Source of the DNA: Mustelus asterias
Taxonomy: Eukaryota
Assembly: GCF_964213995.1 (NCBI RefSeq)
Contig: NC_135811.1
Location: forward strand, 77,438,001 to 77,502,000
Direction of reading: 5' to 3'
Length of the DNA: 64,000 nucleotides
This document shows, one piece after another, positions 1,552 through 37,310 of this stretch. A program made the translations under genes and the position numbers. The notes beneath the pieces are model-generated. The model was given only the letters and a program-made list of their open reading frames with translations, had not been told where the DNA came from and did no database searches. The first letter of the stretch is position 1, and every line of letters begins with the position of its first letter.

Positions 1552-3379
1552 ATGTTTGTTCCGAGTGTTTGCGGGCTGTGGATTTTGTTAATCTGCCTGC
1601 CCGGGATCCTGAGCCAGGACTGCCAGAGGCTGCAGTTACAGCAAGTCCTTAACAAGAATGCTCAAAGGTCCCTGAGGGACATGGTGAGTTTATGCAGAGG
1701 TCCGCGGATTCGAGTAACCAATCTTAACTCGCAGGTTCTCGGGTTAATCTCCTGTCGAGGAATTGCTGAGATTAAATCTGGTCTCTTCCAAAAACGTAGA
1801 ACATCTCCTTGATGGAATGCACATTGAACTATTAAAATATAGAAGGAAGTGTGTGGAAATGTGAAACACTTTTTACTAAGAGTGATTTGTTTGGATGGTC
1901 AGTAAAATATGTGAGAGATAAAATGTTTCAATAAGTTGTTGAATGACCGTGCTGGTTTTGGGGGCAAGTTTCTGAGAGTAAGGACCGCTTGTGAAGTGTG
2001 AGCTTGGAGCCAGTTCTGACAGTCACTCTGTCCTGCTGCAGGGAGGTCCCTTCCCATTCCAGTGTACAGCAACGAGAGAATCACTGAAAACCAAATCCCT
2101 GGACCTGCACCAGCTCATCAAGAGGTTACAGGTGAGTGTGCACTTTGCAACCTGTCTGATCATTCGGTTAATGCTGCCAGGTGTAATAGATATGTGGGGA
2201 ATGTGTACACATCCCCAACAGTAGGAACAATGTAAATGATTTTTAAAGGCAAAGGCTTTATTTTGTTGATTCTCGTAAGACTGAAAATTTAACGTTGAGT
2301 CTTTTGGAAACTGATAGACATTCTGCGGAATAGTTTGACCTTCTTCTCTCCATTTACCCCAAAATGCTGTCAGTACCAGATTTGCTCGCCAAAAGAGGAA
2401 AATACCAGTAACCAGTTTGATAATGATCAAAACTGTCATCAGAAAAGACGGTGTTGACTTTTGAAATTCGTGATTCTTACACTTTTACTGCGTAAACGTG
2501 GAATCAGAGAGATATACAGCACGATAACAGGCCTTTCGGCCCAAATCGTCCATTGCGACCAGGTTTCCTAAACTGAACTGGCCCCATTTGCCTGTGTTTG
2601 GCCCATATCCCTCTAAACCTTTCCTATGCATGTACCTGTCCAAATGACTTTCAAATGTTGTAATAATTCCTGCTTCTGCCACTTCCTCTCATTCCATATA
2701 CGCACCATCCTCTGTGTGAAAAAGTTGCCCCTCAGGTAGCTTTTAAAGCTTTCCCCTCTCCCTTAAATCTATGCCCTCTAGTTTTGGACTCCTGCACACT
2801 TCTCTACTCAATCTGCTATTTCTTGGACCAATGACCCAGTTGATCAAGATCACGTTGTCGTCTTAAATAACCTCCTATTTAAATAATCAGCTAAAGGAGC
2901 AATGTCCTCAATATTGTCGTTGTGTATATTTTGTCCAGACTCAGGACAGGATCCGGATTGTCCACCAAACCCTGCGCCGCATCAACAAGATCTACAGCAT
3001 GAATCTGGGCTCAGTCACATGGGCCCGGGACAAGGTGGAACATTTCCGGCTGCTCCTGGATCGGCAGCTCAGTGAGCTGGAAGAATGTGTCAGGAACCCG
3101 GGATCCAGGCTGAGGAGAAACTCCACCATTCACAATTACTTTAGGAAACTGGAAAAGTTTCTCAAACAGCAGGTGGGACAATGGATAATTGACTGTGTGA
3201 TTACCGGCATGTCGTTTCTTTCACCCCATTGAAATCTGTTCATTCTCTAATCCATGTCCCTCAATGTTTCCATTTCTCAGGGATTCAGTGAGTGTGCCTG
3301 GGAAATAATCCGCGCTGAGACCAGAGGCCGATTACAACAGCTCCTTCTCATAACGGCACAAATCAGCGGAAGCAATTAA
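1552..3379 (+). CDS. Type I interferon, copy 1 (4 exons, 184 aa)
   Basis: Exons 1552-1683, 2042-2131, 2939-3172, 3281-3379, all GT-AG and phase 0. Spliced protein MFVPSVCGLWILLICLPGILSQDCQRLQ...GGPFPFQC...TQDRIRIVHQTLRRINKIYSMNLGSVTW...LEECV...YFRKLEKFLKQQ/GFSECAWEIIRAE...SGSN*. Signal peptide, 4 mature Cys, YF..L..FL and CAWE motifs typical of type I IFN. Confidence 0.95.
2500..2872 (-). mobile_element. CR1-like LINE 3' fragment in IFN intron 2 (also about 9040-9407, 16455-16836, 21153-21532)
   Basis: Minus-strand translation EAGIITTFESHLDRYMHRKGLEGYG matches the CR1 ORF2 C-terminus. Confidence 0.8.
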
Positions 3380-3745
3380 AGAATTTCTATCGATATATTT
3401 ATATGAAGACAAAGAACAGTAATTATTTATTTAAAGATTGTATAATTTTTATCGAAGGATTATATTGTTCAGTCAGCTGCACAAGCCGGTTTGGTTTACC
3501 AGTGTGAGAATGGCCATTGTACAACATAATATCAGAATGAAATAATAATATACCTTTTTAATATTTAATTTATGAGTCTAATATTCATACCTGGATGCAC
3601 TGTGTGAACCTATTTCAAAACTAAAAATATTTGATGAATGCGAGAGGCTGCAAGATATATATTTATTTACAGCAGTTTTATATTGTAATAGACTGTATTT
3701 ATTGGCATCAGATGTGTCCCAAATTACAGTTTCACAATAAATATT
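3380..3745 (+). promoter_or_regulatory. AU-rich 3' UTR (ATTTA elements) and AATAAA of IFN copy 1; equivalents follow copies 2-5
   Basis: Multiple ATTTA/TTATTTATTT runs after the stop; AATAAA at 3736-3741. Typical cytokine mRNA instability elements. Confidence 0.7.
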
Positions 3746-5242
3746 TGAACTTTGAATTTCATGATGTTGTCTTCGTTTACACATTGATGTCGATGTCAGC
3801 TGGGTGTTCCTGTTCATCTTATGTGAGAGATTTCAATCACTGGGTTATGGAGTTTGGGGGGCCCAGTGCTTCCGAATTCATGTCCCACGCCAAGACTCTA
3901 TCTGTTCTGGATGATGTTTATGAGCGGATTCAAATGAATTACTTCCGCACTATTGTCCTAAAGTGTGTGCAGATACGAAATAAGACATCGAAATATGTGT
4001 CTCTTGTTAATAGCTGCAGAATAGAAACTGGTACATTTCGAGAAGTTGCATTTACCTCTTTGAGCACGGGATTAGCTGTGCTATCCTCTGTCAGAACCGA
4101 AATGTATTCAATTGCTGTTCAAATGCACACCCACTGTCAATGAGCACCTGGTGATCTACTCAGGTTATAGACCATTAATGTAAACAGCATCGGAGAAACA
4201 TACTCCATTCTCAATATTTAACCGTTCCTTAACCTGAACGCTTTGATGTTAAATATATTATCAGTTTTCCTCTTTGACTGTGTTGTGTTTGCAATTTTTG
4301 ATTTCTTGAAATCATGTACAAATGCAAACAAATATCTATCGAAAAGATTCCGACTGTTTGCAACTCAGATTTACATCAGGTCATTGTATTTTTTTTCAAC
4401 AATCAAACATTTTGGCTAAATATTACATGGTACAAAATGATTCAATTATTCACAATTCCGAAGTGAACGAAATGGAAATGAACCGGCATTGTTATAGAGA
4501 AAAAGTAATAAAGTCCGCTCAAAGAATCCCCTCAATATATCGAGAAATACAACTATAATCAGAATGTATAATTGACGGTGAAGCTTAGCTTTCCATTCAG
4601 GGTGGCACCACAACACAATCAGCAGATGTTCAGGGGGAAATAAATAGTTTGTTGGCGATCAGTCGTCCAGATGTGACCTTATTGTTTTCGGGGCAATGTG
4701 TCTCCTGATAGCGTAACGCTTCCATTTGGTAGGAAGGGGTTTCCACTGGGAATTCATCTCAATGCCCTGTCTACACATTGATGATCATCTCTTAGCAAGA
4801 AATTGCATAGTGCAAAGATTTTGCGATATCCAATGAAACACTGACCATTAATGAGCACAAAGTGTACCTTTCCACTTATTGGTTAACAAGAATGAAAGTG
4901 CATACCGTCATCTGCATTATTTCTCGAATTTCCCTCCAGTGCGAAGTTGCTTTGCGGCACTGTGTCTTTTTGGAGCACTTACAACTATGCATATCATTAA
5001 AGTATTATCATTTTGTATAAAATTGTATACTATTTCATATACATATAGTGAAGAGAAAAATCAGCGTTGCCCACATTATTGTCATTTCTCACCATCCTTT
5101 TGGCCATCGGGGATTTTCCAATGCATGTTGCATTTCACCCCATCATCGACACAACAATGTAGGCTATGTTTTTGAAAGGCATTTGCCATATGAAGTTGAG
5201 AATGGTGGTCGATAGTCAAACAACCAACGAGATACGGTGCTC

Positions 5243-7806: not shown

Positions 7807-7937
7807 TTAAGCAGAAAGTGAAAAAGGTTTCAAATGAAGAAGTCGTTTCTGGAAACAAGTTAAAAGATTCCCTGAAAACACACCGCGGTTAGAAGCAAAA
7901 TCGATTCATTTTTGTAACGTCAAAGGAATATCCTGGT
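7807..7937 (+). promoter_or_regulatory. IFN promoter block, copy 2
   Basis: GAAAGTGAAA at 7814-7823 plus the same downstream motifs. Confidence 0.7.
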
Positions 7938-8088
7938 TCACACCTTCAAATGGACACAATGGATGAATATTCCTTTCAATCCAACAGCGAAGGAGTTCAG
8001 CTGGTGTTAATATTGTGTTCGGCACTGAACCCCGATCCAGTCACTTTCTGCGATTTCTGATCGCTGCTTTACCCTGTGTTGTTTCAAC

Positions 8089-9913
8089 ATGTTTATTCCG
8101 AGTGTTTGCGGGCTGTGGATTTTGTTAATCTGCCTGCCCGGGATCCTGAGCCAGGATTGCCAGAGGCTGCAGTTACAGCAAATCCTTAACAAGAATGCTC
8201 AAAGGTCCCTGAGGGACATGGTGAGTTTATGCAGAGGTCCGCGGTTTCGAGTAACCAATCTTAACTCGCAGGTTCTCGGGATAATCTCCTGTCGAGGAAT
8301 TGCTGAGGTTAAATCTGGTCTCTTCCAAAAACGTAGAACATCTCCTTGATAGAATACACATTGAGCTATTAAAATATAGAAGGAAGTGTGTGGAAGTGTG
8401 AAACAGTTTTTACTAAGCGTGATTTATTTGGATGGTCAGTAAAATATGTGAGAGATAAAATGCTTCAACAAGTTGTTGAATGACCGTGTTGGTTTTGGGG
8501 GCAAGTTTCTGAGAGTAAGGACTGCTTGTGAAGTGTGAGCTTGGAGCCGGTTCTGACATCATTCTGTCCTGTTACAGGGAGGTCCCTTCCCATTCCAGTG
8601 TACAGCAACGAGAGAGTCACTGAAAACCAAATCCCTGGACCTGCACCAGCTCATCAAGAGGTTACAGGTGAGTGTGCAATTTGTAACCTGTCTGATCATT
8701 CTGTTAATGCTACCAGGTATAATAGATATGTGGGGACTGTATACACACCCCCAACAGTAGGAACAATGTAAATGATTTTTAAAGGCAAAGGGTTTATTTT
8801 GTTGATTCTCGTAAGACTGAAAATTTAATGTTGAGTGTTTTGGAAACTGACAGACATTCTGCGGAATATTTTGACCATCCTCGCTCAATTTACCCCAAAA
8901 TGCTGTCAGTATCAGATTTACTCGCCAAAAGAGGAAAATACCAGTAACCAGTTTGATAATGATCAAAATTGTCACACAGAAAAGACGGTGTTGTCTTTTG
9001 AAATTCGAGCTTCTTGTACTTTTACTGCGTAAACGTGGAATCAGAGAGATATACAGCACGGAAACAGGCCCTTCGGCCCAAATCGTCCATTGCGACCAGG
9101 TTTCCTAAACTGAACTGGCCCCATTTGGCTGTGTTTGGCTCATTTCCCTCTAAACCATTCCTATGCATGTACCTGTCCAAATGTCTTTCAAATGTAATAA
9201 ATCCTGCTTCTGCCACCTCCTCGCATTCCATATACGCACCATCCTCTTTGTGAAAAAGTTGCCCCTCAGGTAGCTTTTAAAGCTTTCCCCTCTCCCTTAA
9301 ATCTATGCCCTCTAGTTTTGGACTCCTGTACACTTCTCCACTCAATCTGCTATTCCTTGGACCAATGACCCAGTTGATCAAGATCACGTTGTCGTCTTAA
9401 ATAACCTTCTATTTAAATAATCAGCTAAAGGAGAAATGTCCTCAATAATGTCGTTGTGTATATTTTGTCCAGACTCAGGACAGGATCCAGATTGTCCTCC
9501 AAACCCTGCGCCACATCAACAAGATCTACAGCATGAATCTGGGCTCAGTCACATGGTCCCGGGATAAGGTGGAACATTTCCGGCTGCTCCTGGATCGGCA
9601 GCTCAGTGAGCTGGAAGAATGTGTCAGGAACCCGGGATCCAGGCTGAGGAGAAACTCCGCCATTCACAATTACTTTAGGAAACTGGAAAAGTTTCTCAAA
9701 CAGCAGGTGGGAAAATGGATAATTGATTGTGTGATTACCGGCATGTAATTTCTTTCACCCCATTGAAATCTGTTCATTTTCTAATCCATGTCCCTCAATG
9801 TTTCCATTTCTCAGGGATTCAGTGAGTGTGCCTGGGAAATAATCCGCACGGAGACCAGAGGCCGATTACAACAGCTCCTTCTCATAACGGCACAAATCAG
9901 CGGAAGCAATTAA
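8089..9913 (+). CDS. Type I interferon, copy 2 (4 exons, 184 aa)
   Basis: Exons 8089-8220, 8578-8667, 9473-9706, 9815-9913; GT-AG, phase 0, open frame, CAWEIIRTE. Confidence 0.95.
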
Positions 9914-15511: not shown

Positions 15512-17342
15512 ATGTTTGTTCCGAGTGTTTGCGGGCTGTGGATTTTGTTAATCTGGCTGCCCGGGATCCTGAGCCAGGATTGCCAGAGGCTGCAGTTACA
15601 GCAAGTCCTTAACAAGAATGCTCAAAGGTCCCTGAGGGACATGGTGAGTTTATGCAGAGGTCCGGGGATTCGAGTGACCAATCTTAACTCGCAGGTTCTC
15701 GGAATAGTCTCCTGTCGAGGAATTGCTGAGATTGAATCTGTATTCTAATAAAAATGTAGAACATCTCCTTGATGGAATGAAAATTGAAGTATTAAAGTAG
15801 AGAAGGAAGTGTGTGGAAATGTGAAACACTTTATACTTAGAGTGATTCAGTTGGATGGTCAGTTAAATATGTGAGAGATAAAATACTTATGCAAGTTCTT
15901 GAGCACTTTCCTGGTTTTGGGGGCACGTTTCTGAGAGTAAGGACCGCTTGTGAAGTGTGCGCTTGGAGCCGGTTCTGACATCATTCTGTCCTGTTGCAGG
16001 GAGGTCCCTTCCCATTCCAGTGTATAACAACGAGAGAATCACTGAAAACCAAATCCCTGGACCTGCACCAGCTCATCAAGAGGTTACAGGTGAGTGTGCA
16101 CTTTGCAACCTGTCTGATCATTCTGTTCATGCTGCCAGGTGTAATAGATATGTGGGGAATGTGTACACATCCCCAACAGTAGGAACAATGTAAATGACAT
16201 TTTAAAGGCAAAGGCTTTATTTTGTTGACAATCATAAGACTGAAAATTTAATGTTGAGCATTTTGGGGAACCGACAGACATTCTGCGGATTACTTTGTCC
16301 CTCTTCTCTCCACTTGCCCCAAATTGCTTCAAGTTAGTTCGCCAAAAGAGGAAGATAACAGGAACAAGTTTGATAATGATCAATATTGCCACCACAAAAG
16401 GCGGTATTGACTTTTTAAATTCGAGCTTCTTAAACTTCTACAGCTGTAGATATACAGAGTCAGGGAGATATACAGCACGGAAACAGACCCTTCGGCCCAA
16501 CTAGCCCACGGCGACCAGGTTCCCTAAACTGAAATAGTCCCATTTGTCTGCGTTTGACCCATATCCCTCTAATCTTTTCCCTAACCATGTACTTCCAAAT
16601 GTCTTTTAAATGTTGTAATTGTCCCCGCCTCTACCACCTCCTCTGGCAGCTCATTCCATACACGCACCACCCTCTGTGTGAAAAAGCTGCCCCTCAGGTT
16701 CCTTTTAAATTTTTCACCTCCCCCGTAAACCTATGCTCTCTAGTTTAGGACTCCCCTACACTCCTGTATCCAATCTGACATTACTCGGACCACTGGACAA
16801 AGTTGATCAAGATCACGTTGTAGTCTCAGATAACCTTCTATTAAAATAGTCAGTAAAAGGAGAAATGTCCTCACCAATGTCGTTATGTATATTTTGTCCA
16901 GACTCAGGACAGGATCCAGATTGTCCATCAAACCCTGCGCCACATCAACAAGATCTACAGCATGAATCTGGGCTCAGTCACATGGGCCCAGGACAAAGTG
17001 GAACATTTCCGGCTGCTCCTGGATCGGCAGCTCAGTGAGCTGGAAGAATGTGTCAGGAACCCGGGATCCAGGCTGAGGAGAAACTCCACCATTCACAATT
17101 ACTTTAGGAAACTGGAAAAGTTTCTCAAACAGCAGGTGGGACAATGGATAATTGACTGTGTGATTACCGGCATGTAGATTATTTCACCCCATTGAAATCT
17201 GTTCATTCTCTAATCCATGTCCCTCAATGTTTCCATTTCTCAGGGATTCAGTGAGTGTGCCTGGGAAATAATCCGCACGGAGACCAGAGGCCGATTACAA
17301 CAGCTCCTTCTCATAACGGCACAAATCAGCGGAAGCAATTAA
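15512..17342 (+). CDS. Type I interferon, copy 3 (4 exons, 184 aa)
   Basis: Exons 15512-15643, 16000-16089, 16902-17135, 17244-17342; GT-AG, open frame. Confidence 0.95.
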
Positions 17343-20218: not shown

Positions 20219-22030
20219 ATGTTTATTCCGAGTGTTTGCGGGCTGTGGATTTTGTTAATCTGGCTGCCCGGGATCCTGAGCCAGGATTGCCAGAGGCTGC
20301 AGTTACAGCAAGTCCTTAACAAGAATGCTCAAAGGTCCCTTAGGGACATGGTGAGTTTATACAGAGATCCCGGGATTCGAGTGACCAATCTTAACTCGCA
20401 GCTTCTCGGGATACTCTCCTGTCGAGGAATTGCTGAGATTAAATCTGTTCTCTTCCAAAAATGTAGAACATCTCCTTGATGGAATGCACATTGAAGTTTC
20501 AAACTATAGCAGGGAGTGTGTGGAAATGTGAAACAGTTTTTACTAAGAGTGATTTATTTGGATGGTCAGTAAAATATGTGAGAGATAAAATGCTTCAACA
20601 AGTTGTTGAATGACCGTGTTGGTTTTGGGGGCAAGTTTCTGAGAGCAAGGACCGCTTATGAAGTGTGAGCTTGGAACCGGTTCTGACATCATTCTGTCCT
20701 GTTGCAGGGAGGTCCCTTCCCATTCCAGTGTACAGCAACGAGAGAATCACTGAAAACCAAATCCCTGGACCTGCACCAGCTCATCAAGAGGTTACAGGTG
20801 AGTGTGCAATTTGTAACCTGTCTGATCATTCTGTTATAAGATATGTGGGGAATGTATCCACAACCTTAAGAGTTGGAACAATATAAATGATTTTTAAAGG
20901 CAAAGACTTTATTTTGTTGATTGTCGTAAGACTGAAAATTTAACGTTGAGCATTTTGGGGACTGATAGACATTCTGCGGAATAGTTTGACCTTCTTCTCT
21001 CCATTTACCCCAAAATACTGTCAGTATCAGATTTGCTCGCCAAAAGAGGAAAATACCAGTAACCAGTTTGATAATGATCAAAATTGTCACACAGAAAAGA
21101 CGGTGTTGACTTTTGAAATTCGAGATTCTTACACTTTTACAGCGTAATCGTGGAATCAGTGAGATATACAGCACGGAAACAGGCCCTTCGGCCCGAATCG
21201 TCCATTGCGAACAGGTTTCCTAAGCTTAACTGGTGCCATTGGCCTATGTTTGGCCCATATCCCTCTAAACCTTTCCTGCGCATGTACCTGTCCAAATGAC
21301 TTTCAAATGTTGTATGAAATCCTGCTTTTGCCACCTCCTCTGGGAGCCCATTCCATATACGCACCACCGTCTGTGTGAAAAAGTTACCCCTCACGTCCCT
21401 TTTCAATCTTTCCCCTACCCCGTAAACCTATGCCCTCTAGTTTTGGACTCCCCAACACTTCTCTACTCGATCTGCCATTTCTTGGACCAGTGACCCAGTT
21501 GAGCAAGATCACGTTGTGGTCTTAGATAACCTTCTTTTAAAATAGTCAGCTAAAGGAGAACTGCGTTTACTAATGCCATCGTGTGTATTTGTCCAGACAC
21601 CGGACAAGATCAAGATTCTCCATCAAACCGTGCGCCACATCAACAAGATCTACAGTATGAACCTGGGCTCAGTCACATGGGCCCGGGACAAAGTGGAACT
21701 TTTCCGGCTGCTCCTGGATCGGCAGCTCAGTGAGCTGGAAGAATGTGTCAGGAACCCGGGATCCAGGCTGAGGAGAAATTCCGCCATTCACAATTACTTT
21801 AGGAAACTGGAAAAGTTTCTCAAACAGCAGGTGGGACAATTGACTGTGTGATTACCGGCATGTCATTTCTTTCACCCCATTGAAATCTGTTCATTCTCTA
21901 ATCCATGTCCCTCAATGTTTCCATTTCTCAGGGATTCAGTGAGTGTGCCTGGGAAATAATCCGCACGGAGACCAGAGGCCGATTACAACAGCTCCTTCTC
22001 ATAACGGCACAAATCAGCGGAAGCAATTAA
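20219..22030 (+). CDS. Type I interferon, copy 4 (4 exons, 184 aa)
   Basis: Exons 20219-20350, 20708-20797, 21597-21830, 21932-22030; exon 3 begins with divergent TPDKIKILHQTVRH. Confidence 0.95.
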
Positions 22031-23253: not shown

Positions 23254-23942
23254 TGAAGACGGGAACGGGTTAATGAACTTTGTAATATTTGGAGATTTGT
23301 AAAAAGCATTGTAGAACTTGTTTTCATGTCTGTAGAATTTGTTTTCGTGTATCCAAAAACAGATAAGAGAAGCAGCTGTCCCTGCTGTTGTACACAAGTT
23401 TATGATTTTCCCAGCTAGCTGTGTTCAGGAATGTGGCTAACCCAGCTAGTATCTATTTTGTGTTCTCTTATATTATGTACTTCTGTTTAACACGGTGGAG
23501 CTTACATGCATGCCTTCTGTGATCGTATAATAATAGATTCATATATATTTATTATATACTATTTATCCTTACTGATATAAATTGTTATATAGGCCCCTGT
23601 ACTTCAGTTGACTTGTTTGTGCAAACTTATAATCTTGTATGCTGGATAAACAAACCACAGATGTCCGCCACATAGAGGCGACAGAACAGACAGTTGCAGC
23701 CTTGAGATGGCTACGATTACACGGACTACGCGAAGGACAGAACCGCCGATGCAGCAATAATCATGAGAAAATGCGGACGTGACCAGGGGTGAAAATATAT
23801 GTCTAAATATCTGCTCTTAACTTGTATTTGGGGAGAAGTTTAGAGAACCTCTTTAGGATCGGAGTTCTCCCACAAGCTTGTGAAAATAAACTGCTGTACT
23901 TTGACTCACGACTAGTCTCAGAGGTATTATTTACCGACAACA
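23254..23942 (+). repeat. ERV 5' LTR
   Basis: 689 bp, TGAAGAC...GACAACA, AATAAA at about 23885. Confidence 0.95.
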
Positions 23943-23945
23943 AAT

Positions 23946-23963
23946 TGGTGCCGAAACCCGGGA
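23946..23963 (+). promoter_or_regulatory. Primer binding site, tRNA-Phe
   Basis: TGGTGCCGAAACCCGGGA is the exact complement of the 3' end of vertebrate tRNA-Phe(GAA); it lies 3 nt after the LTR. Confidence 0.92.
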
Positions 23964-24391
23964 TCTGTTTATGGGTCTGGTCGAATGGCCACGACCGGGA
24001 CACCAGAATAGAATACCAAACTTAATAGGGTGGGTCAAACTACAGTAGGTGGTCATCTGTGATGAGAGAGTGTGAGAGTGAAAGATGTCTGAACTGAGCA
24101 CATATGGACAAGGAGTCAATTGACTCTAACACACAGCCTTAGACAGGTTGTTATGAGGAGAAATCCCCTACGCGATGGTCAGGACCATGAAGTGGGTGTA
24201 GAGTCTGGAAAAAGGTTGCCTGAGGTGTGATGTTCAGACGTGAGTGAGAAAGAGACTGTCTGAGTGATCGCCAGAGGGATCTGATCGCCCCTGACAGGTA
24301 TCACTGGACTCTGATAAGAGTGACCTCGGAGGGGGAGAGCGAGAAGGGAGAACAGAAGACTCCAGGTGGTGAGTATAAACTTATTGGTGTT

Positions 24392-25735
24392 ATGGCGGGA
24401 CAAGGACAGTGGGGACCCCCGGGATCCCTGATAAACGAATATATGACTAAGAGGGACAAATTCATTAAACAGATGAGCAAAGGGGGGTGGGATTCATCCC
24501 ACCCGCTAGACCAACAACGGAAATGGTTGGAAAAGGAAAAGAAAGACAGAACTAAGAAAATTGGAGTTCTCTTAGTTCACCAATTGGCCGGATTAACTGA
24601 ACAGGTCTCAATCTCAGGTAAGAAATGGGCTGATTACAAAGCAAAAATTAAAATGCTGGAAGCACGCAATAGAGAATTAGAAAAGAGAAGCCAACTTTTA
24701 GAGGACCCCGGCTGGGGATCCTTGCCTCCCTATGGGCTGGCCGTACAACCCACGGCACCAGTGGGAGACTTCGACCCGATGAGGAAGAGGTCCATGATCT
24801 CGCTCCCATACCTCGGGGCGGGACATTACAACATCCCATGGCTCAATACAAACCCTTTACCCCAGGAGAAAGACAACAGGTTTTGGCATCCCTGGAAGGC
24901 TCCAGCCCCGGAGTGGCAATAGCAAATTTTAGGCAGAACTAGACACCATTTGGGTTGGACACCAATTACATTTGCGGGATATACACCAGTTGGTACGAGC
25001 CGCTTGCCCACAGGACAGGTGGAGACTACTGGGTGACAGGGCGGACCAGGCTGACGTCGCCATCAGAGCCCGGTTTTATTACCAAGGCGGAAGGTGGACG
25101 TTCGCGACAGAGACAAACGCCGAGATCGATGAAATGATGGAACCATTTAATTGGTTTAAGGCAGCAGTCCAGCGAGTATTGGACAATGCACCAACCAACT
25201 GGACCAGAATTACCAATACTAACCAACAAAGGGGTGAAGGAGCCTCCGAATTCGGGGAGCGACTCTTCAAAGTATATCAAGAATGTTCCGGAATGCCCGA
25301 TAATGCCCGAACAGATAGAGCCTTTCTACAAGCATTTAAGGATGGGCTGTCACCAGCTCACCAAAAAATCCTTAAAATGGGAGTCCTCAGTACCCGGGAT
25401 TACAATGAATTAGTAGAATGGACATCTGGAATTAGAGACGGACCAGATGAGAAACCATACCCACGAATAAAACAGGAAAATGTTAGTGCAAACAGTGAAG
25501 GAGCTAAACCAAAGGGTGCGTGCTATAATTGTGGGAAACCGGGTCACTTTGCCAGAGACTGTAGAGCTCCAAAGTGGGGTAGAAGGAAGGCCCCTACCTG
25601 CCAGTTTTGCAATAAGGATGGCCACACCGAGGCCACCTGTTGGAGCAAACACAGCAGACCGAGTCAACTCCTCCCCCCTCCCCACACCGAGGAGGGAGGG
25701 AACTGGCGTGAGGCAGCCCCCGCAAGCCTGGGCAG
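24392..25735 (+). pseudogene. gag: ERV gag (frameshifted)
   Basis: MAGQGQWGPPGS..., MHR-like QQRGEGASEFGERL, two CCHC knuckles CYNCGKPGHFARDC and CQFCNKDGHTEATC; split across ORFs 24320-24922 and 24972-25994. Confidence 0.88.
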
Positions 25736-28700
25736 AAAGGTGGGTAGAATCTACGTGTCTGCACTAGTAGGGGGCAGACAATGTGAAATGCTGGTGGACA
25801 CAGGAGCCTCCATATCAATCACCAATCTACCCTTGTCCATCACTAATAAAATGATCTGTGTAAGAGGAATTAATGGACAGAAGACCCCTGCCTACTTAAG
25901 CGAAACCACCCTAGTAGAAATTAATAACCTGTATATACCTATGCGATTTTATTATGTAAAAATAATGAAGGAACTATTATGGGAAATGACCTGATGAAGG
26001 AGTACAAAGTCTTACTAGATTGCAGGAAGGGCGAATTGATTTGGCCCCGCCCCCATGGGAGAAAGGACAGGGTAGGAACATATGTAAACTATCTAGGAAC
26101 CGTCCATGCAGCATCTGCAACAGGACGCGACTGGCAGTTAGAAGATAATGGATTTGGTGCCATCTGCGCCTCTATCCCCGGGTATGGGCGGAAACGAAAC
26201 TAGATACTGGATTAGTCAAAACTGACCCCATAATAGTGGAAGGACCAGAACATAAACCACATCGACAATACCCGATTAAGCCCAAAGCCAAAAAGGCATT
26301 TGAGGAAATTGCGATGGGATTAGTAAAAAGGGGGATCCTACAGGAAACCACTAGTCCCACCAACTCCCCCACCTGGCCGGTGCCTAAACCGGACGGGAGC
26401 TATAGATTAACCATTGATTATACAGCTTTAAATAAAGTGACCCCCAAGCTACACCCCATCGTGGCTAGCCCCTCCACCATTTTAAACGGGTGGTCACCAT
26501 CCCATGGAATCTTTACAGTATTAGATATCACCAACGGATTTTAGTCCATTCCCCTGGATCCTAATTCACAAGATAAATTTGCATTTACCATAGGCGATAA
26601 ACAGTACACATGGACTAGGCTCCCGCAAGGCTTCCACAACAGCCCGGCTATATTTCACCGGGTAATGAGTAAGATATTAGAACAAGTAGAAGTCCCAAAA
26701 GGGAGCACAATTCTGCAGTATGTAGACAACATCTTAATAGCCTCCAAAACTAGAGCAGAACATCAGATGGCACTATACTCAGTCTTGAAGCACTTAGAAG
26801 AACAGGGACTAAAGGCGAGCCCCAGGAAGCCCCAAATAGGGAAAGCGCAGGTGTTATATTTGGGACACCTGATATCCCAGGGAACCAAAGAAATGCCAGT
26901 GGACAGGGAAACAGCTATACAGCAAATGCCAAGACCAGTAACCGTCCAAGGGGTAAGGAAGGTTTTGGGATTGTTTAATTACAGCCGCGACTTTATACCG
27001 GAATTCGCCTGACTAACCGAACCAATACAAAGGCTAGTAAAAGGTGGGAAACCCACTCTAGAAGTTATAGAGTGGGGATCAGAACAGGAAGAGGCATGTA
27101 GCAAACTAAAAGCAGAACTAATGACAGCTCCGGGACTTGGACTGCCTGACGCTGGTAAAGATTTTCACATCTATTGTAATAATGAAGGGGGATATTACTC
27201 GGCAGTAGTCATACAGGTCCATGGGGATAAGCAGTGACCCATGGGTTATTATTCCACAGCGGAGGGCCCCGTAGTAACCGGGTTACCCAGATGTATAGCC
27301 ACACTGGATTGCGCTGCAGGGGCAGTAAAGATCAGCGAGCCCATTGTAATGACGGGGAATATTGTCTTGCACGCCATACATACCTTGGTGGAAATGCTGA
27401 ACACAGGAAAATTACAGTCTGTCTCAAATATGAGAAGGGCGAAGCGGGAGGCAGTGCTTCTCCCACCCACTAAGTCCATCACCATTGTACGAGATATGGG
27501 AACGAACCCCGCAGAAGGAATGTTAGGTGAAGGGAACCCACACAACGTGTGGGGACGTAGATGAAGAGGTAGAGGAAGGTAGAATAAAGGATGTGCTCCT
27601 GGAGGCACCAGATATTGTCCTGTTTGTGGATAGATCATGGAAATATGTAGATGGGTCACCATGAACAGGATGAACAGTAGTGAATGCGCACTTACTAATT
27701 GTTCAAGCAGGAAGGATAGAGGGAGGCATGTCAGTGCAAGTGGCGGAACTAGTAGCCTTAACTCAGGCTTTTACCGAGGCGGTGGGGAAAATGGTCAACA
27801 TTCACACCAATAGTAGATATGCATTCGGAATTGTGCATGTCTATATGACCGTTTGGGGGAGAAGGGGATTTGTCACAATGGGAGGCACTACAATTAAACA
27901 TGGCCAGATAATAGCAACCTTACTGGAAGCCAGCAACCTCCCATCGGAAACCACGGTATTGAAGGTAAAGGCGCACCAAAAGGAACCAGACATGCAAAGT
28001 CCTGAGTGGCATATCTTTAAGGGAAACCAGGCAGCCGACATAGCGGCATGATCTGCCTTGGAAGCAAGGGAAATGCAAGCCTTGCCGGCTGCCTCGGCCA
28101 AAGTCGAACCCCCGATAGACATCTCACAGCTACATGCTGATACCCCTGAAGAAGAACGTGCGAGTTGGAAAGCTCAAGGAGCTACACCTGATGGAGGGGG
28201 GATATGGAGATTAAATGATAAAGTTCTAGCGCCAGAATGTATCCAGCATACTCTGATGCGGTTACATCATGGGCTGTTGCATGTGGGAAGGGATACCATG
28301 ATGACCAGTATGGGGAAGGAATGGTCGTGGAAAGGAATGGGATGGGACATTGCCCGGTATTGTCACCGGTGCATAACCTTTGCACAGTATAACCCCGGAA
28401 GAGCCGTAAAAATCAAGATGGGACACCAGCCCCACCCTAAATGTCCCTGGGAACATCTACAAATCGACTTTACAGGGCCTCTTCCGCAGTCACATGGGAG
28501 AACCTACTGCTTGGTAATAATTGACCAATTCACCAGATGGGTAGAAGCATTTCCAATGAAAAACTGTTCTGCCACTACAGTGGCAAGAATACTAGCTGAG
28601 GAAGTTATCCCAAGATGGGGGGGTGCCTTTGCAAATAGACTCCGATCAAGGCACACACTTTACGGGGAAGGTAGTAAAAACTATATGTCAACTGATGGGG

Positions 28701-29270
28701 ATAAAACAGAAATTTCACATACCCTACCACCCTCAAAGCTCAGGAATGGTGGAACATATGAATAGGACACTTAAGACCTCCCTGGCAAAGGCCATGCAGG
28801 AATCAGGGAAGAGATGGACAGAAGTATTACCCGCCATATTAATGAAACTCAGAGCCACCACAAATCGGACCACTGGGCTGACACCATATGAGCTAATGAC
28901 CGGAAGGGCTATGCAACTGCCCAAGTCCATCATTACCCGAGGGGCAGATGTAGGCCCATTACGGGACAGGATTAGACGATATGTATTAGAATTAAGCTCG
29001 CAATTAAAAGATATGTGGAAAACAGTACGGGACAAACAAATAGCGGTAGATGAGCACAATGAACTAGAACAGACCCCGGAGTTACCCCCGGCGGGCAGCA
29101 AGGTTATGGTAAAAACATTACCTGGAAAACCTGGGTTCGCCCCCAAATGGAATGGCATCAGTGGAGACACCTGTGCCTGCATAGATATGCAAGGCAGGGG
29201 CATCTGGAAACATTGGACTCAGTTGAAAGAATACACTGGCACCAATTGGAAAACATGTAATGTGCTCAAT
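25736..29270 (+). pseudogene. pol: ERV pro-pol (protease, RT, RNase H, integrase) with stops and frameshifts
   Basis: Protease LVDTGAS...GNDL; RT NSPTWPVPKPDGSYRLTIDY, WTRLPQGFHNSP, LQYVDN; RNase H QVAELVAL, NSRYAFG, VKAH, GNQAADIAA; integrase LQIDFTG, IDSDQGTHF, SSGMVEHMN. Confidence 0.93.
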
Positions 29271-29996
29271 TCACAGATACGTGAGACGGCTGACCTCCAA
29301 GCAAGCTGAACAGGTTCGTGGGAAGTTGCGCGCGGGCAATATAGCCTTGGAACCATTGTATAACGGTCACGCAGATTATTAGTAAGTGATAAGATGCTTC
29401 TCATGCTGCTTCCCGCGACCCTGGCCCTGTTAGCCATAGCGGGAAAGTATAGATGGAATTATGAGGATTTAGCGATGAAGCACCATGAAGTAACAATGAC
29501 TCTGTCTATTGTATGAACACCTTTGTGTATATGTCTTATCTGTATGCATCACAATCAAATCTGAGCAAGTGCTGGGTCTGTTCACACATTCCCACGCACG
29601 GAGGAAAGGGAGGAAATCCTTTATTCCCTATCCCCTTATCAGCTCTGGGAATGATAGAATGGATTTTAAATCAGAATGGAACCCAGGAAGGGACAAGGAA
29701 ACTGACATTCAAAACCCCATCGGGTACAACCATGCAGAGTACGTTTAATATCAGTAACAGTGATGTTGTTTTAGGGCTAGAGGGTGGAGGGTGCACTTTA
29801 TCGACCTTTAAGAAACATTACCAACCCAGCTATGACAGATCAGATTCCCCACCCAACTTCGTTGTGAAAAATCAACAAAGGGGATCTATCTGCCTGACAA
29901 GAAATGGAACCATACCTGTTGGCTGGAGCTACTGTATACAGTAAGAGTTTTAACAACACCAAGTTAAAGTCCAACAGGTATATTTGGTAGCAAATA

Positions 29997-30033
29997 CCAT
30001 TAGCTTTCAGAGCGCTGCTCCTTCGTCAGATGG
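29997..30033 (-). ncRNA. Minimal type I hammerhead ribozyme motif
   Basis: Minus strand CCAT-CTGACGA-aGGAGcagcgCTCT-GAAA-GC-TA-ATGG: core intact, stem I CCAT/ATGG, stem II, AGCT stem III. Confidence 0.72.
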
Positions 30034-30191
30034 AGTGGAAATGTGCTCTCAAACAGAGCATAGAGACACAAAATCAAGTTACAGAACTTGTTACAAGTTA
30101 CAAAATCAAGTTACAGAACTTGTTACAAGTTACAGAACTTCTGTAACTTGATTTTGTGTCTCTGTGCCCTGTTTGAGAGCACATTTCCACT

Positions 30192-30228
30192 CCATCTGAC
30201 GAAGGAGCAGCGCTCCGAAAGTTAATGG
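30192..30228 (+). ncRNA. Minimal type I hammerhead ribozyme motif
   Basis: CCAT-CTGACGA-aGGAGcagcgCTCC-GAAA-GT-TA-ATGG; one change in stem III. Confidence 0.65.
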
Positions 30229-31255
30229 TATTTGTTACCAAATAAACCTGTTGGACTTTAACCTGGTGTTGTTAAAACTCTTACTGTCTTCACCCCAGTC
30301 CAACGCTGGCATCTCCACATCATGGCTACTGTATACAGCAGATTAATGTCACTAATGACGCTTGGGCCATGGTACAACAGGTCACAATCCAGTGCCCCAC
30401 ATGCACTGTCCCGGTTAGCCTCCCCTCCGCTTATGTAAGCAGGATGACTGCATATAATGGTACCTATTTTGTCTGTGGAAACAGTGCCTACCCGTGGCTT
30501 CCCTGGAATTGGGCAGGATCGTGTTATTTGGCATATGTGGCGCCCGATATTCACCAATACACTGACTTACGGGACCACCCCAAGATACACCTGCTTAGGG
30601 TTAAGCGAGCCATTAGTGAGACAGAATGGTTCTTCATGATAGCCTACCCACTTTATGGGACGGCAAAGGCAGCACAGGAACTTATACAGATGGCCTCGAC
30701 CCTAGAGAAAATTGCAAATGAGACTAAAGATGGGTTCGAGGAGGTGAGCACGGCCGTCTCTGAAGCATCAACAGAGGTTGTAGCTATTCGGACTGTGGCG
30801 CTACAGAACCGATTGGCACTCAATTATGTGCTAGCCTCCAAAGGAGGAATATGCGCTATAGTTGGCTCCGAATGCTGACCGTATATTCCAGATGCTTTGA
30901 AGAATATAACTCGCTTGGCAGATCTTATTAAACACGTGGCGAAAACAGGATGAGGGGAACCAATATCACAATTATAGCCCCCCAGGCTGGCTGGGGCAAT
31001 GGTTTGGGTCATGGGGTTCATACCTGAGGCATGGATTGATTATATTAATTGTAATTATAATTGCTTGCTGTGTTTGTATGGCATTATTGAACGCCTGTTG
31101 TAAAATGGTAACAGCGCGGATTATGCCAGGCGCAAGTGTACACGCAGAGGGGGCAGACCTCCTGACAAAGGAGCTGGGCCCATATGCTGATAACATTTGG
31201 TTCTGAATTGGTCCTGGGGCCATGCTTGGGCCTGGCCCTGATCAAAAGGGGGGAA

Positions 31256-31946
31256 TGAAGACGGGAATGGGTTAATGGACTTTGTAATACTTAGAGATTT
31301 GTAAAAAGCATTTTCGAACTTGTTTTCGTGTCTGTAGAACTTGTTTTCATGTATCCAAAAACAGATAAGAGAAGCAGCTGTCCCTGCTGTTGTACACAAG
31401 CTTATGATTTTCCCAGCTAGCTGTGTTCAGGAATGTGGCTAACCCAGCTAGTATCTATTTTGTGTTCTCTTATATTATGTACTTCTGTTTAACACGGTGG
31501 AGCTTACATGCATGCCTTCTGTGATCGTATAATAATAGATTCATATATATTTATTATATACTATTTATCCTTACTGATATAAATTGTTATATAGGCCCCT
31601 GTAACTTCAGTTACCTTGTTTGTGCAAACTTATAATCTTGTATGCTAGATAAACAAACCACAGATGTCCGCCACATGGAGGCGACAGAACAGACAGTCGC
31701 AGCCTTGGGATGGCTACAATTACACGGACTACGCGAAGGACAGAACCGCCGAGGCAGCAATAATCATGAGAAAATGTGGACATGACCAGGGGTGAAAATA
31801 TATGTCTAAATATCTGCTCTTAACTTGTATTCGGGGAGAAGTCCAGAGAACCGCTTTAGGAATCGGAATTCTCCCACAAGCTTGTGAAAATAAACCACTG
31901 TACTTTGACTCACGACTAGTCTCAGAGGTATTATTTACTGACAACA
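31256..31946 (+). repeat. ERV 3' LTR
   Basis: 691 bp, about 30 differences from the 5' LTR by eye; followed by the GTTAC TSD. Confidence 0.95.
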
Positions 31947-33775: not shown

Positions 33776-35250
33776 CCCTATGCAGTCGAGAATGTCGGTG
33801 GATAGTTGAAAAACCAACTGAGCACAGCGCTCCACAAACATTCCCAATACTCAACAGTGCAGCAAACATGACAGCGCGAAATAGAGACTCATTGTTGCCT
33901 CTTCCTATTGGATATGCCAAGTAGATTAACTGTTTTGCAGGTTTCAGCTGGACCTGCTGATCGCATCTCTCTAAATTCTATCCTCGTTTGGAAGTCATTA
34001 CCCACCTGATCCTATATTTTCCTCAATATCTAAACAGCTGTAAGTTTGGAAGTGAAATTCGTTCCTCGCTATTTGATGGCGAGGAAAGAAAGACAGGAAG
34101 TATCAGGAAAAGTTAACATTCACCCGATAGATCCTGCCAGAAGAGTGGAGAGGGTAAAGGAGAATCAGGCGGGAGACCCAAGAGTTGCTGTGTCACCTTG
34201 ACCTGAAATCTCTCACAATGATTCAGTGAGAGAGTAACATTGGTCCTCTGGTCATTAAACCTATTTTAAATGTTCAATGAGGCTGGAGTTAGAAGTTAAA
34301 CTTCAAGCATCGTGTCTTTATATTAACATTGGTGTCTCTACAAAGAAGCAAGTTTCAATTGGTTAAGTTCGTGAGTAAGTGAGCCAAACATGCCAGGAAT
34401 GTTTCCAAAGTCAACATCAATATGATTACTGCTCTTGGCTGTAATTGTGACAGCTGAGTTATAATTGGTTGTGAGGTAAAGAGTGGTAAATTACCCAGTA
34501 TTGTATACAGTTTCTGCACATTATCACTTGTCAAATTATCACACTGATGCATTTTTGCATTCGTTACGTGTGTGTTGTATGAGAATAATTCAGGACCCAC
34601 AAAACTCTCTGCTCACTAACCAGTCACACGCATTCACTTTGGTCTGTGCTTGTGAAATATCAGAGTCTGAGCACTTAGCTCCATAATAAATGATTGTCTG
34701 CTGGGGAGGAATGAGGGAGGCAGACACTTGGCTAAAAGGGGAGAGTGGAAGCAACTCAAAACCGCAATCCCCGATTGGCAGCCCATTGGTTTTCAGTGGA
34801 AGTCAAATTGCATCATTCCGTCGAGTTGTTTAGTGAATATTGAAAACAGATGAGCTTGCTCTAATTACACAGTCAGGACATTGCACCCTAAATCCTGGAG
34901 TTTAAATTAGCTTTCAGGATTTTTAGTGCAGCATCCAAAATGGCAATAAATCAATTCACTTCTCACCTTCCCCGCCCCATCAAACATCCCTGTTAGAACC
35001 CAGCCTTTTAAACCCCCAATCCAATTCCTAACAGACTAAACTGACTGTGAGCGCAGCATTTCCCAATATAAGGTGGTTCCGCATTTAGGAATCTTAAAAC
35101 ATATGAAATGATTTTTTAAAATGAATTGCTTATCAAAATCTGGCCAACAAAGAGGCAACAGATGTAAAATTTTGGGTAACATCTGTCCAGCTTTTAATGT
35201 CGAAGTATAGGTTTGCATCCTAATTTATTAGAGAGAAAATTCATTCTTAA

Positions 35251-35380
35251 TTAAGCAGAAAGTGAAAAAGGTTTCGAATGAAGAAGTCGTTTCTGGAAAC
35301 AAGTTAAAAGATTCCCTGAAAACACACCGCGGTTAGAAGCAAAATCGATTCGTTTTGTAACGTCAAAGGAATATCCTGGT
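35251..35380 (+). promoter_or_regulatory. IFN promoter block, copy 5
   Basis: GAAAGTGAAA at 35258-35267 plus the same downstream motifs. Confidence 0.7.
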
Positions 35381-35518
35381 TCATACCTTCAAATGGACAC
35401 AATGGATGAATATTCCTTTCAATCCAGCAGCGAAGGAGTTCAGCTGGTGTTAACATTGTGTTCGGCACTGAACCCGGATCCAGTCACTTTCTGTGATTTC
35501 TAATCGCTGCTTTAAAAC

Positions 35519-37310
35519 ATGTTTGTTCCGAGTGTTTGCGGGCTGTGGATTTTGTTAATCTGGCTACCCGGGATCCTGAGCCAGGATTGCCAGCGGCTGC
35601 AGTTACAGCAAGTCCTTAACAAGAATGCTCAAAGGTCCCTGAGGGACATGGTGAGTTTATACAGAGATCCGGGGATTCGAGTGTACAATCCTAACTCGCA
35701 CCTTCTCGGGATAATCTCCTGTCGAGGAATTGTTGAGATTAAATCTGTTCTCTTCCAAAAGTGTAGAGCATCTCCTTGATGGAATGCGCATTAAAGTGTT
35801 AAAATATAGAAGGAAGTGTGTGGAAATGTGAAACACTTTTCACTGAGTGTTTCAGTTGGATGGTCAGTAAAATATTTAAGCAAGTTGTGGAATGACTGTG
35901 CTGGTTTTGGGAGCAAATTTCTGAGAGTAAGGATCGCTTGTGAAATGTGAGCTTGGAGCCCGTTCTGACAGTCATTCTGTCCTGTTGCAGGGAGGTCCCT
36001 TCCCATTCCAGTGTATGGCAACGAGAGAATCACTGAAAACCAAATCCCTGGACCTGCACCAGCTCATCAAGAGGTTACAGGCGAGTGTGCACTGTGTAAC
36101 CTGTCTGATCATTCTTTTAATACTGCCAGGTATAATAGATATGTGGGGAATGTATCCACACCCTCAACAGTAGAAATAAATAATGTTGAAGGCGAACGTG
36201 TTATTTTATTCGTTTGTGTAAGAATTAAAGTTTGTTGCTAAACCTTTTGGTTCGAAATGTTGGAGCCTTCGTATACTCTGGACGGGCCAACATTTCTTCT
36301 CTGTACTTACAGGAAGATGTTAGTTCGCTAATGTGAACATGTTAATTAGCCCACAACAGAATGTCAGGATCCAGTTCGGTATTAACTAATATTTCCAACT
36401 GCAACAACGAGGATGTGGTTTTTCATTCTGTCTGCTTACTTACCTACATTTGGAAAACCGTATTAAAATAAGAACTAACTGGATTGTGGTCCGTGTCTGT
36501 GAGTTATGCTCTTTTGCTCGCAGGCCAAAAGGGAACAGGTCCTTCTCTCTAATATCATTGTGTATATTTTGTACAGATAGGATCCAGCTTGTCTATCAAT
36601 CCCTGCCTTGTTTGGGGGGGGGGGGGGGACGGACGGATAAACTGAACTATAGTCAGTCTTTCTCCTCTCCACTTTCCCCAAATTGCTGACAGTATCAGAT
36701 TAGCTCGCCAAACGAGAAGATACCAGAAACCAGTTTGATGATGAATATTGTCAGCGGCAATTACGGTGCTAACTTTTAAATTCGAGTTTCTTACACACTT
36801 GCAGCTGCAGATGTCTATTAAAATAGTCAGTTAACTAAGAAACGTTTTCTCTAATGTCGTTGTATATATTTTGTCCAGACTCAGGACAGGATCCAGATTC
36901 TGCATCAAACCCTGCGCCACATCAACAAGATCTACAGCATGAATCTGGGCTCAGTCACATGGGCCCAGGACAAAGTGGAACATTTCCGGCTGCTCCTGGA
37001 TCGGCAGCTCAGTGAGCTGGAAGAATGTGTCAGGAACCCGGGATCCAGGCTGAGGAGGAACTCCACCATTCACAATTACTTTAGGAAACTGGAAAAGTTT
37101 CTCAAACAGCAGGTGGGACAATTGACTGTGATTACCGGCATGTAGTTTCTTTCACTCCATTGAAATCTGTTCATTCTCTAATCCATGTCCCTCAATGTTT
37201 CCATTTCTCAGGGATTCAGTGAGTGTGCCTGGGAAATAATCCGCACGGAGACCAGAGGCCGATTACAACAGCTCCTTCTCATAACGGCACAAATCAGCGG
37301 AAGCAATTAA
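35519..37310 (+). CDS. Type I interferon, copy 5 (4 exons, 184 aa; GC donor at intron 2)
   Basis: Exons 35519-35650, 35991-36080, 36879-37112, 37212-37310; open frame, but intron 2 starts CAG|GCGAGT rather than GTGAGT. Confidence 0.88.

Follow-up and report, generated by a model that had tools for sequence, protein, structure and literature searches.

Sequence evidence for an exon-wise mosaic history of type I interferon subtypes in a gene cluster of the shark Mustelus asterias

Results

Five four-exon interferon genes

Within the window analysed here (64,000 nucleotides of Mustelus asterias contig NC_135811.1), five type I interferon (IFN) genes, g1 to g5, extend on the forward strand from the ATG of g1 at 1552 to the stop codon of g5 at 37310. 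Each has exons of 132, 90, 234 and 99 nt, three introns, all in phase 0, a product of 184 aa with four cysteines, and no internal stop (5/5), as the initial annotation had described. The genes are g1 (1552..3379; exons 1552-1683, 2042-2131, 2939-3172, 3281-3379), g2 (8089..9913; exons 8089-8220, 8578-8667, 9473-9706, 9815-9913), g3 (15512..17342; exons 15512-15643, 16000-16089, 16902-17135, 17244-17342), g4 (20219..22030; exons 20219-20350, 20708-20797, 21597-21830, 21932-22030) and g5 (35519..37310; exons 35519-35650, 35991-36080, 36879-37112, 37212-37310). The spliced product of g2 is letter-identical to the NCBI-annotated protein P0002, and the protein of g4 is the most diverged, with 9-11 aa differences to the others.

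Exon 3 alone matched Pfam PF00143 with 38.1 bits for g1 and 39.9 bits for g5, above the curated cut-off of 26.8, which supports the type I identity proposed earlier. Exon 4 scored 21 bits, below this cut-off, and exons 1 and 2 searched singly against PF00143 gave no match. The best PDB sequence match was grass carp IFNa (9.6e-17), and all 20 PDB matches at E<=0.01 were interferons. Mature cysteines at positions 24, 52, 124 and 157 occur in every window gene, in agreement with the four-cysteine form claimed before, and are invariant in 22/22 aligned rows. They would place the products among the 4C (two-disulfide) IFN1s, with predicted bonds Cys24-124 and Cys52-157. A CAWE motif at 157-160 and a hydrophobic N-terminus (predicted signal peptide) were read from the sequence.

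GT-AG borders were found in 14 of 15 introns; the exception is intron 2 of g5 with a GC donor at 36081-36082. At position 36082 the listed contigs (4 runs) read T, none of those listed over this position being g5-specific. Part of intron 2 of g5 is replaced, its 3' UTR homology is cut at about 37435, and AATAAA is absent within 450 nt of its stop, while g1-g4 have one. The description of all five genes as intact thus holds for the reading frames, but for g5 it is certain for the reading frame only. pN was lower than pS in 10/10 window pairs, and positive selection among the copies is accordingly disfavoured.

An IRF-element-like site, GAAANNGAAA, lies at 1277..1286 (+), 275 nt 5' of the g1 ATG. 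It occurs upstream of 5/5 genes (g5: 35258-35267) and counts as one inherited site. The 3' UTR of g1 (3380..3780, +) is AU-rich, with 8 ATTTA compared to 2.5 in shuffles (P 0.0025) and AATAAA at +357. Between g4 and g5 lies a broken endogenous retrovirus (ERV; 23254..31946, +) with, in order, LTR, gag zinc knuckle, protease, RT, integrase, env fragments and LTR; its LTRs are 95.7% identical and flanked by a 5-bp target duplication.

Cluster layout and copy number

The window genes are the last five (A08 to A12) of 12 same-strand type A genes, the other seven being located upstream of the window. Further upstream copies had been raised as a possibility, while the term five-gene array fits the window but undercounts the array. 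The long third exon, four exons and three phase-0 introns are common to 12/12 type A genes. This array faces 13 inverted type B/C genes within a cluster of ~275 kb; the inverted array, like the exon-wise mosaic history described below, had been overlooked in the initial annotation. In total, the cluster comprises 28 exon-3 loci, namely 27 gene bodies and one orphan fragment. The latter is an IFN pseudogene at 52731..53173 (-), frameshifted and consisting of exon 3, intron 3 and exon 4 only, with 67-77% identity to g1 in long blocks; an exon 1 or 2 belonging to it was not found. No position was assigned to exon 2 of the diverged genes D1 and D2. Subtypes A, B and C are all 4C. Type B genes carry duplicated exon-1 modules, and both first exons encode full signal peptides.

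All exon-3 matches (29/29) fall inside C11:77.356-77.627 Mb, and the family search, which gives a lower bound, found no second locus above its cut-off in this genome. The cluster is growth-hormone-linked: a GH-family exon lies on C11 ~285 kb beyond it (best PDB match of this one exon human GH, 2e-12). A class II receptor cluster was detected with the PF09294 and PF01108 profiles on C17:61.75-61.98 Mb; single-exon PDB searches from it gave best E values of 0.0078 and 0.0022, too weak for gene naming.

Stacked haplotypes could inflate the copy number. For the five window genes this is extremely improbable: their units differ by 5.7-22% over gene and flanks, the spacers measure 6537, 7423, 4707 and 15300 bp, and the ERV is unit-specific, so the earlier view of real paralogues holds. 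From run X1, contigs of 798 and 806 nt align to non-coding DNA specific to g5 with 0 and 1 differences, although X1 may be the assembly's own sample and hence no independent source. No N gaps were found inside the cluster. For the upstream two-gene repeat of 15 kb, which is 99.2-99.6% identical, stacking is unlikely but a serious possibility: the CDS pairs A02/A06 and A05/A07 are identical, blocks of 11-13 kb reach 99.6% identity, and 2-4 of the 12 A genes may be concerned.

Divergence within type A

The window genes differ in only 7-21 of 555 CDS nt. This closeness, the 12 same-strand copies and the upstream repeat would all suit a young expansion in which a single gene of this lineage multiplied in tandem without conversion, and the gap between exons and introns is non-significant in 3-4 of 10 window pairs (g1/g2 P 0.21, g1/g4 0.49, g2/g4 0.26; P 0.06-0.49 among closely related units). 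In other pairs, synonymous divergence was far below intronic divergence, with 3.3% vs 12.6% for g1/g3 (P 3e-4), 3.3 vs 13.7 for g2/g3 (P 1e-4) and 4.1 vs 13.8 for g3/g4 (P 4e-4). g3 and g5 are 7 coding nt apart, yet they differ by 12.7% in intron 1 (P 3e-4, intron 1 only); intron 1 was used and the 27% divergence of g5 intron 2 set aside because part of the latter is replaced. Related species also have type A clusters with several members (14 for P0003), and the mosaic between A and B/C would be left unexplained. As a full account, a young expansion is already contradicted by these comparisons, and we give it very little chance.

Of the earlier description as a young, lineage-specific expansion, youth applies to some units such as the upstream repeat, but the type A subtype also occurs in rays, and the introns of g3 and g5 are far more diverged than their exons. 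The array is indeed expanded, but large chondrichthyan expansions have been published, and NCBI clusters in other sharks and rays have up to 24 members. The divergence pattern argues strongly for homogenisation of type A exons via gene conversion, and the 4.7-8.5 kb units, the 15-kb repeat and the pseudogenes for turnover of the array through unequal crossing-over.

An exon 3-exon 4 cassette shared between subtypes

Type B/C genes align with the gene body of g1 over a single long stretch, a cassette made up of the end of intron 2, exon 3, intron 3 and exon 4 (2919..3389, +) with 84% identity over ~480 bp; for exon 1 there is a mere 77-93 bp match at 73-78%. Between A and B/C in this genome, pS is 0.49-0.70 in exons 1-2 but 0.14-0.23 over the opening 52 codons of exon 3; intron 3 shows a mismatch of 0.22-0.26 and exon 4 one of 0.12-0.22. 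The UTR and introns 1-2 are unalignable, and the front halves of the exchanging subtypes are only ~45% identical.

Trees (LG+G4) were calculated for 44 proteins, which remained after 31 of 76 hits (partial, fused or odd-length) and then P0056 had been dropped; the alignments are short, with 74 and 80 columns, and 10 and 20 of 41 forks stay open. In exons 1-2, the 10 type A rows form one group (100/98) across sharks and rays. Exon 3 rejects this group (dlnL 87, p-AU 1.5e-5) and joins type A with same-species non-A sequences in Heptranchias (97/88), Pristiophorus (97/88) and Heterodontus (85/85), groupings that exons 1-2 in turn reject (p-AU 6e-5, 0.020 and 0.012, respectively). Trees of 22 rows (P0001, P0019 and P0025 dropped of 25) had the same outcome, and exon 4 (32 columns) gave no resolution. 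The nearest exon 3 neighbour of the 10 type A rows was a same-species non-A sequence in three cases, type A in five and a non-A sequence of another species in two; no within-species grouping was seen in carpet sharks and rays. All species other than this one enter the comparison through machine gene models alone, and for genes in tandem such models may be chimeric.

At 68 diagnostic cassette sites in 12 A and 12 B genes of this genome, both subtypes keep their own alleles, scattered sites excepted, and no recent A-B tract was found. Ongoing A-B conversion in this genome is thereby rejected; exchange would be old or episodic. Strong purifying selection or receptor-face convergence could also produce the likeness in exon 3 with no DNA exchange at all, given that helices B-D are functionally constrained, pN over the early portion of exon 3 is as low as 0.02-0.04 and recent tracts are missing. 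We nevertheless hold it to be most improbable, as synonymous sites and the non-coding intron 3 are alike too while neighbouring introns are unalignable, and same-species identity across subtypes exceeds cross-species identity within a subtype (Heptranchias A/C 94% vs 75-83% for A/A). Cassette exchange fits the trees and alignments better: they indicate that exons 1-2 have been subtype-specific since before the shark-ray split, and that only the exon 3-intron 3-exon 4 cassette was exchanged between A and B/C, episodically and in several lineages.

Protein model and receptor faces

In the best protein model (pLDDT 75; 46-65 for the other four), helices 24-44, 75-94, 104-125, 136-152 and 156-182 coincide with the exon ends 44, 74 and 152. 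The last helix is long, straight and unbroken, and the fold is nearer to type I than to type III. In Foldseek, 11/11 matches at E<=0.001 were type I IFN entries, and IFN-lambda appeared only at E 0.087. IFNAR1 is described to contact helices B, C and D, and IFNAR2 helix A and the AB loop as well as helix F (PMC8980424). On this model, exon 3 would encode helices B-D and thus the IFNAR1 face, with much of the IFNAR2 face coming from exons 1-2.

Discussion

Most likely, g1-g5 are antiviral type I IFNs of the known cartilaginous-fish 4-exon 4C kind that close a type A array of 12 genes at its distal end, with a history of cassette exchange. Gene structure, fold and cluster layout were observed directly. 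Family knowledge and the motifs found predict IRF-driven induction on viral infection and a short-lived AU-rich mRNA; secretion and signalling via an IFNAR1/IFNAR2-type pair are likewise expected from the family. The many near-identical copies may mainly raise dosage.

Exchange limited to the cassette might be explained by the receptor faces. Exon 3, corresponding exactly to helices B, C and D, would form the binding face for the shared IFNAR1/CRFB5 chain, so that exchange there would be tolerated or favoured, while exons 1-2 (helix A, AB loop) would bear subtype-specific contacts to IFNAR2-type chains and come with subtype-specific promoters. We propose this tentatively. Exon 4, which encodes the last helix on the IFNAR2 side, lies within the exchanged cassette and fits poorly to a clean IFNAR1-only rule; grass carp IFNa, which was found to bind both CRFB1 and CRFB2 (PMC8980424), also counts against the proposal. 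In its favour, elephant shark is reported to have one IFNAR1-like and two IFNAR2-like genes (PMC5332411).

Equally tentative is a reading in which elasmobranch IFNs evolve as exon modules. The ancient, subtype-defining front half, comprising promoter, helix A and AB loop, would have stayed separate since before sharks and rays diverged, and the exon 3-4 cassette would have been overwritten repeatedly between subtypes, keeping every ligand matched to a single IFNAR1 chain. A and B/C would then be functionally distinct groups relying on different chains of the IFNAR2 type, which would parallel teleost groups I/II independently, and type B would add a second, separately regulated set of promoter and first exon. 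Whole-protein IFN1 trees with cartilaginous fish would in that case blend two histories.

These results could matter in three ways. The IFN1 cluster, fully resolved for an elasmobranch and holding three subtypes that are all 4C, gives a repertoire about as large as that of mammals. The exon-wise incongruence offers a concrete reason for the weak placement of chondrichthyan IFN1 (PP 0.53 for a possible IFN-f affiliation of the expansion, PMC6640115) and shows how such trees need redoing. Natural front/back-half mosaics open a direct experimental route to how the earliest jawed vertebrates used their receptor chains.

As genes, g1-g5 are nothing unusual for a shark and had been annotated by machine before; what is added here is the exon-wise subtype mosaic. 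We found no published account of exon-restricted exchange in shark IFNs, in a search that covered subscription journals, where much fish-IFN work appears, thinly. In line with the initial annotation, a 4-exon form with loss of intron 3 has been published for cartilaginous fish (PMC5332411), and exon 3 as the putative equivalent of teleost exons 3 and 4 is consistent with this loss. Elephant shark IFN1-3 and spiny dogfish IFN1/2 (GH/CD79 locus) have the same four exons and three introns, are 4C and lie in tandem near GH (PMC5332411); the spiny dogfish IFN1/2 rows in Table_2 of PMC6640115 have a type A N-terminus, as judged by eye. Elephant shark has three genes, whereas here 27 gene bodies and an orphan fragment form two inverted arrays with duplicated type B exon-1 modules. 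The separate elephant shark scaffold-86 locus (orthologues of the amniote intronless IFN1) is sister to amniote IFNs, and its IFN5 is predicted to have five exons; being 4-exon and GH-linked, the window genes probably fall outside this group.

The lineage-specific expansion of chondrichthyan IFN1 described by Redmond et al. 2019 is likewise large with birth-death turnover (PMC6640115). Its Table_2 includes 49 skate IFN1 rows, along with a single partial row for catshark type B. The study relied on fragments and whole-protein trees, in contrast to the exon-wise comparison here; in its main text, 'gene conversion' appears a single time, in a general remark, and 'recombination' never. Among our 76 hits at E<=1e-20 there were no bony-fish sequences. 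The closest solved structures are from teleosts (grass carp IFNa 7wkh, zebrafish 3piv/3piw; groups I/II). Teleost IFNs have five exons and are grouped by cysteine number; in this cluster all three subtypes are 4C. The proposed mechanism takes as its template the common fish chain CRFB5 and the CRFB1/2 chains, which are split between groups (PMC8980424). With its putative second promoter, type B would resemble teleost IFNa/phi1, for which two-part promoters are described (PMC5127012). Alternative transcripts in teleosts, however, yield a form that is not secreted, while each of the two type B first exons codes for a complete signal peptide. The mammalian IFN-alpha cluster has similarly undergone species-specific duplications and frequent coding-region conversion (PMC3342878). 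It is intronless and non-syntenic, whereas in the shark cluster the exchanged unit follows exon and helix boundaries and passes between subtypes.

Structure and identity of the window genes

Self-comparison of the window gave five related units between 1 and 37.4 kb, each with one plus-strand gene (g1 to g5; window 1552..37310). Every gene consists of exons of 132, 90, 234 and 99 nt with three phase-0 introns and encodes a 184-aa product without stops and with mature cysteines at 24, 52, 124 and 157. GT-AG borders were found in 14 of 15 introns, the exception being g5 intron 2 with a GC donor. The middle of this intron is replaced by unrelated DNA; at window 36558-36605 it contains a decayed second copy of the acceptor site and opening codons of exon 3. 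Coding sequences differ at 7-21 of 555 nt and proteins at 3-11 residues, with pN below pS in all ten pairs.

Exon 3 alone exceeds the Pfam interferon cut-off. In the PDB sequence search (20 matches) and with Foldseek (11 matches at E<=0.001), every match was a type I interferon entry. The g2 product is letter for letter the NCBI protein P0002, labelled 'interferon a3-like [Mustelus asterias]'; this is an independent prediction of the splice model, and machine annotation of the genes already exists. The five 4-exon, 4-cysteine type I IFN genes are real, with exons, frames, cysteines and Pfam domain confirmed, and are further members of the known cartilaginous-fish kind. An IRF-like site, GAAANNGAAA, is located 261-275 nt upstream in all five. 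Their 3' UTRs carry 6-9 ATTTA each (g1: 8 vs 2.5 in shuffles, P 0.0025), and only g5 has no AATAAA within 450 nt.

Layout of the cluster

The window corresponds to G000:C11:77438001-77502000. The census was taken from 464 kb read around it, and the sole N gap falls outside the cluster. All 29 exon-3 matches in the genome (assembly G000) lie on contig C11 (NC_135811.1) at 77.356-77.627 Mb; they represent 28 loci, as one gene matched twice, and this is a lower bound. The cluster comprises two diverged minus-strand genes with incomplete models, D2 and D1, and 12 plus-strand type A genes, all open 184-aa frames encoding 10 distinct proteins. The window genes are the final five of these, so the further copies suspected upstream were indeed found. 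One type C and 12 type B genes, three of the latter broken in splice sites or by stops, lie on the minus strand, tail to tail with the type A array. An orphan pseudogene (window 52731-53173) retains exon 3, intron 3 and exon 4 only. A GH-family exon, best matching human GH, was detected ~285 kb beyond the cluster.

D2 (G000:C11:77356460-77366169, stretches L002-L003, minus strand) is without the first cysteine in exon 1 and the third in exon 3, and its CAWE cysteine is present. By its sequence, in a model with no placed exon 2, it is a candidate 2C interferon of the cartilaginous-fish kind. D1 (G000:C11:77380505-77383154, L005, minus strand) resembles type B in exon 1, and its exon 3 shares only ~42% identity with type A; D1-like proteins of other sharks are the database entry P0056 and the second half of P0001.

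Downstream of g5, two ~335-bp tandem repeat copies of 98.5% identity occupy window 37897-38566. LINE-type fragments with endonuclease and reverse transcriptase domains (window 41558-43240 and 50914-51690) are situated in the DNA that separates the A array from the B/C array, and SINE copies are numerous from 53.4 kb onward.

Divergence and age of the type A array

Over gene plus flanks the window units differ by 5.7-22%. Their spacings are 6537, 7423, 4707 and 15300 bp, the last (g4-g5) due to a broken env-bearing endogenous retrovirus at window 23254-31946 (LTRs 95.7% identical, 5-bp target duplication). g1 to g5 are paralogues and not stacked haplotypes, a reading that the initial annotation had considered unlikely. 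A two-gene ~15-kb higher-order repeat, 99.2-99.6% identical, was observed at G000:C11:77393119-77438138 (L006-L010), and two gene pairs upstream of the window have identical coding sequences; this repeat may be a very recent duplication or an assembly artefact, the two being indistinguishable there.

Synonymous divergence was significantly lower than pooled intron divergence in seven of ten window pairs (g1/g3: 3.3% vs 12.6%, P 3e-4; g2/g3: 3.3% vs 13.7%, P 1e-4). Four of the seven include g5 with its partly replaced intron 2; for g3/g5 the gap persists with intron 1 alone (P 3e-4). Among the ten pairs compared, g1/g2, g1/g4 and g2/g4 showed no gap. Intron 3, which is short, varies as little as the exons do (1-6%). 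We read this pattern as gene conversion superimposed on birth-and-death turnover. Squalomorph sharks, galeomorph sharks and rays all possess the type A front half (exons 1-2), and the subtype is therefore old. The description of the array as young thus does not extend to the subtype, and the exons understate age in the seven pairs.

Exon-wise mosaic between subtypes

In this genome, A and B/C differ at synonymous sites by 0.49-0.70 across exons 1-2. For exon 3 the value is 0.14-0.23 over its first 52 codons and 0.21-0.42 over its last part; intron 3 differs by 0.22-0.26 and exon 4 by 0.12-0.22. The stretch that can be aligned measures ~480 bp, starting 20-37 nt before exon 3 and ending just past the stop. 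B and C differ by 0.14 in exon 1 vs 0.72 in exon 2, which is therefore the most subtype-specific piece. At 68 diagnostic sites no recent A-B exchange tract was seen in this genome, though the type C gene carries A alleles at some of them and B alleles at others.

Trees were built from 44 of 76 homologues, leaving out 31 partial, fused or odd-length matches and P0056; the alignments are short, and species other than M. asterias rest on machine gene models. Exons 1-2 place all ten type A rows on a single branch (100/98), which exon 3 rejects (p-AU 1.5e-5). Exon 3 joins A with same-species non-A rows in Heptranchias (97/88), Pristiophorus (97/88) and Heterodontus (85/85), that is in only three of ten type A rows; all three pairings are rejected by exons 1-2. 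An earlier set of 22 rows, from which P0001, P0019 and P0025 had been dropped, already showed the conflict; Heterodontus A, carpet sharks and rays joined later. The small share of same-species pairings, the lack of a recent tract, the short alignments and the machine gene models count against the mosaic reading.

The P0002 structure model (mean pLDDT 75; other models 46-65) predicts that helix A ends at residue 44, the end of exon 1, that the AB loop lies in exon 2, that helices B, C and D (75-94, 104-125, 136-152) fill exon 3 and that exon 4 is one long last helix. According to PMC8980424, the IFNAR1 face is formed by helices B, C and D and the IFNAR2 face by helix A, AB loop and last helix; in teleosts CRFB5 is common and CRFB1/2 are group-specific. 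Elephant shark has two IFNAR2-like genes and one IFNAR1-like gene (PMC5332411). All subtypes would meet one IFNAR1-type chain, which would make the cassette (end of intron 2 to exon 4) swappable, and front halves would set IFNAR2-type contacts and regulation. We put this forward tentatively, as less likely than not. The rule is not clean, since exon 4 travels within the exchanged cassette, and it is weakened by grass carp IFNa, which binds both CRFB1 and CRFB2. An equally simple neutral explanation is that conversion needs homology, and that the compact exon 3-4 block was the one part left able to recombine when introns 1-2 had ceased to align. A class II cytokine receptor exon cluster at G000:C17:61752700-61975583 is probably the IFNAR/IL10RB/IFNGR2 locus.

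Duplicated first exons, promoters and charge

Eleven of the 12 type B genes (G000:C11:77514145-77631478, L012-L023, minus strand) have two or three tandem promoter-plus-exon-1 modules ~1.7 kb apart. Each module encodes a complete signal peptide and has a splice donor of its own, and the modules are likely alternative first exons. Distal-type modules are open in 12/12 (C included). Decay is commoner in the proximal type (n=13), with three modules frameshifted, one without its cysteine and one with a 6-nt deletion. In a motif scan without controls, type A had an IRF-like site and no NF-kB-like match, and B/C distal modules had an NF-kB-like match. With a pI of 10.2-11.0 and a net charge of +12 to +19, the mature proteins of P0002, P0005 and P0006, which cover all three subtypes, are strongly basic. 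Direct antimicrobial activity is reported for cationic fish IFNs.

Comparison with known interferon loci

The A/B/C layout, exon-restricted exchange and duplicated first exons in shark IFNs were not found in the literature searched, which did not extend to subscription journals and bioRxiv supplements; these may hold any of the three. Gene conversion is described for mammalian IFNA clusters (PMC3342878). A lineage-specific chondrichthyan IFN1 expansion, with 49 skate rows in the supplement, is reported in PMC6640115, and NCBI clusters reach 22-24 members in other sharks and rays. For cartilaginous fish, four exons, intron 3 loss and 4C/2C forms are published, as is the GH linkage of the elephant shark IFN locus (PMC5332411), a linkage which the M. 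asterias cluster shares.
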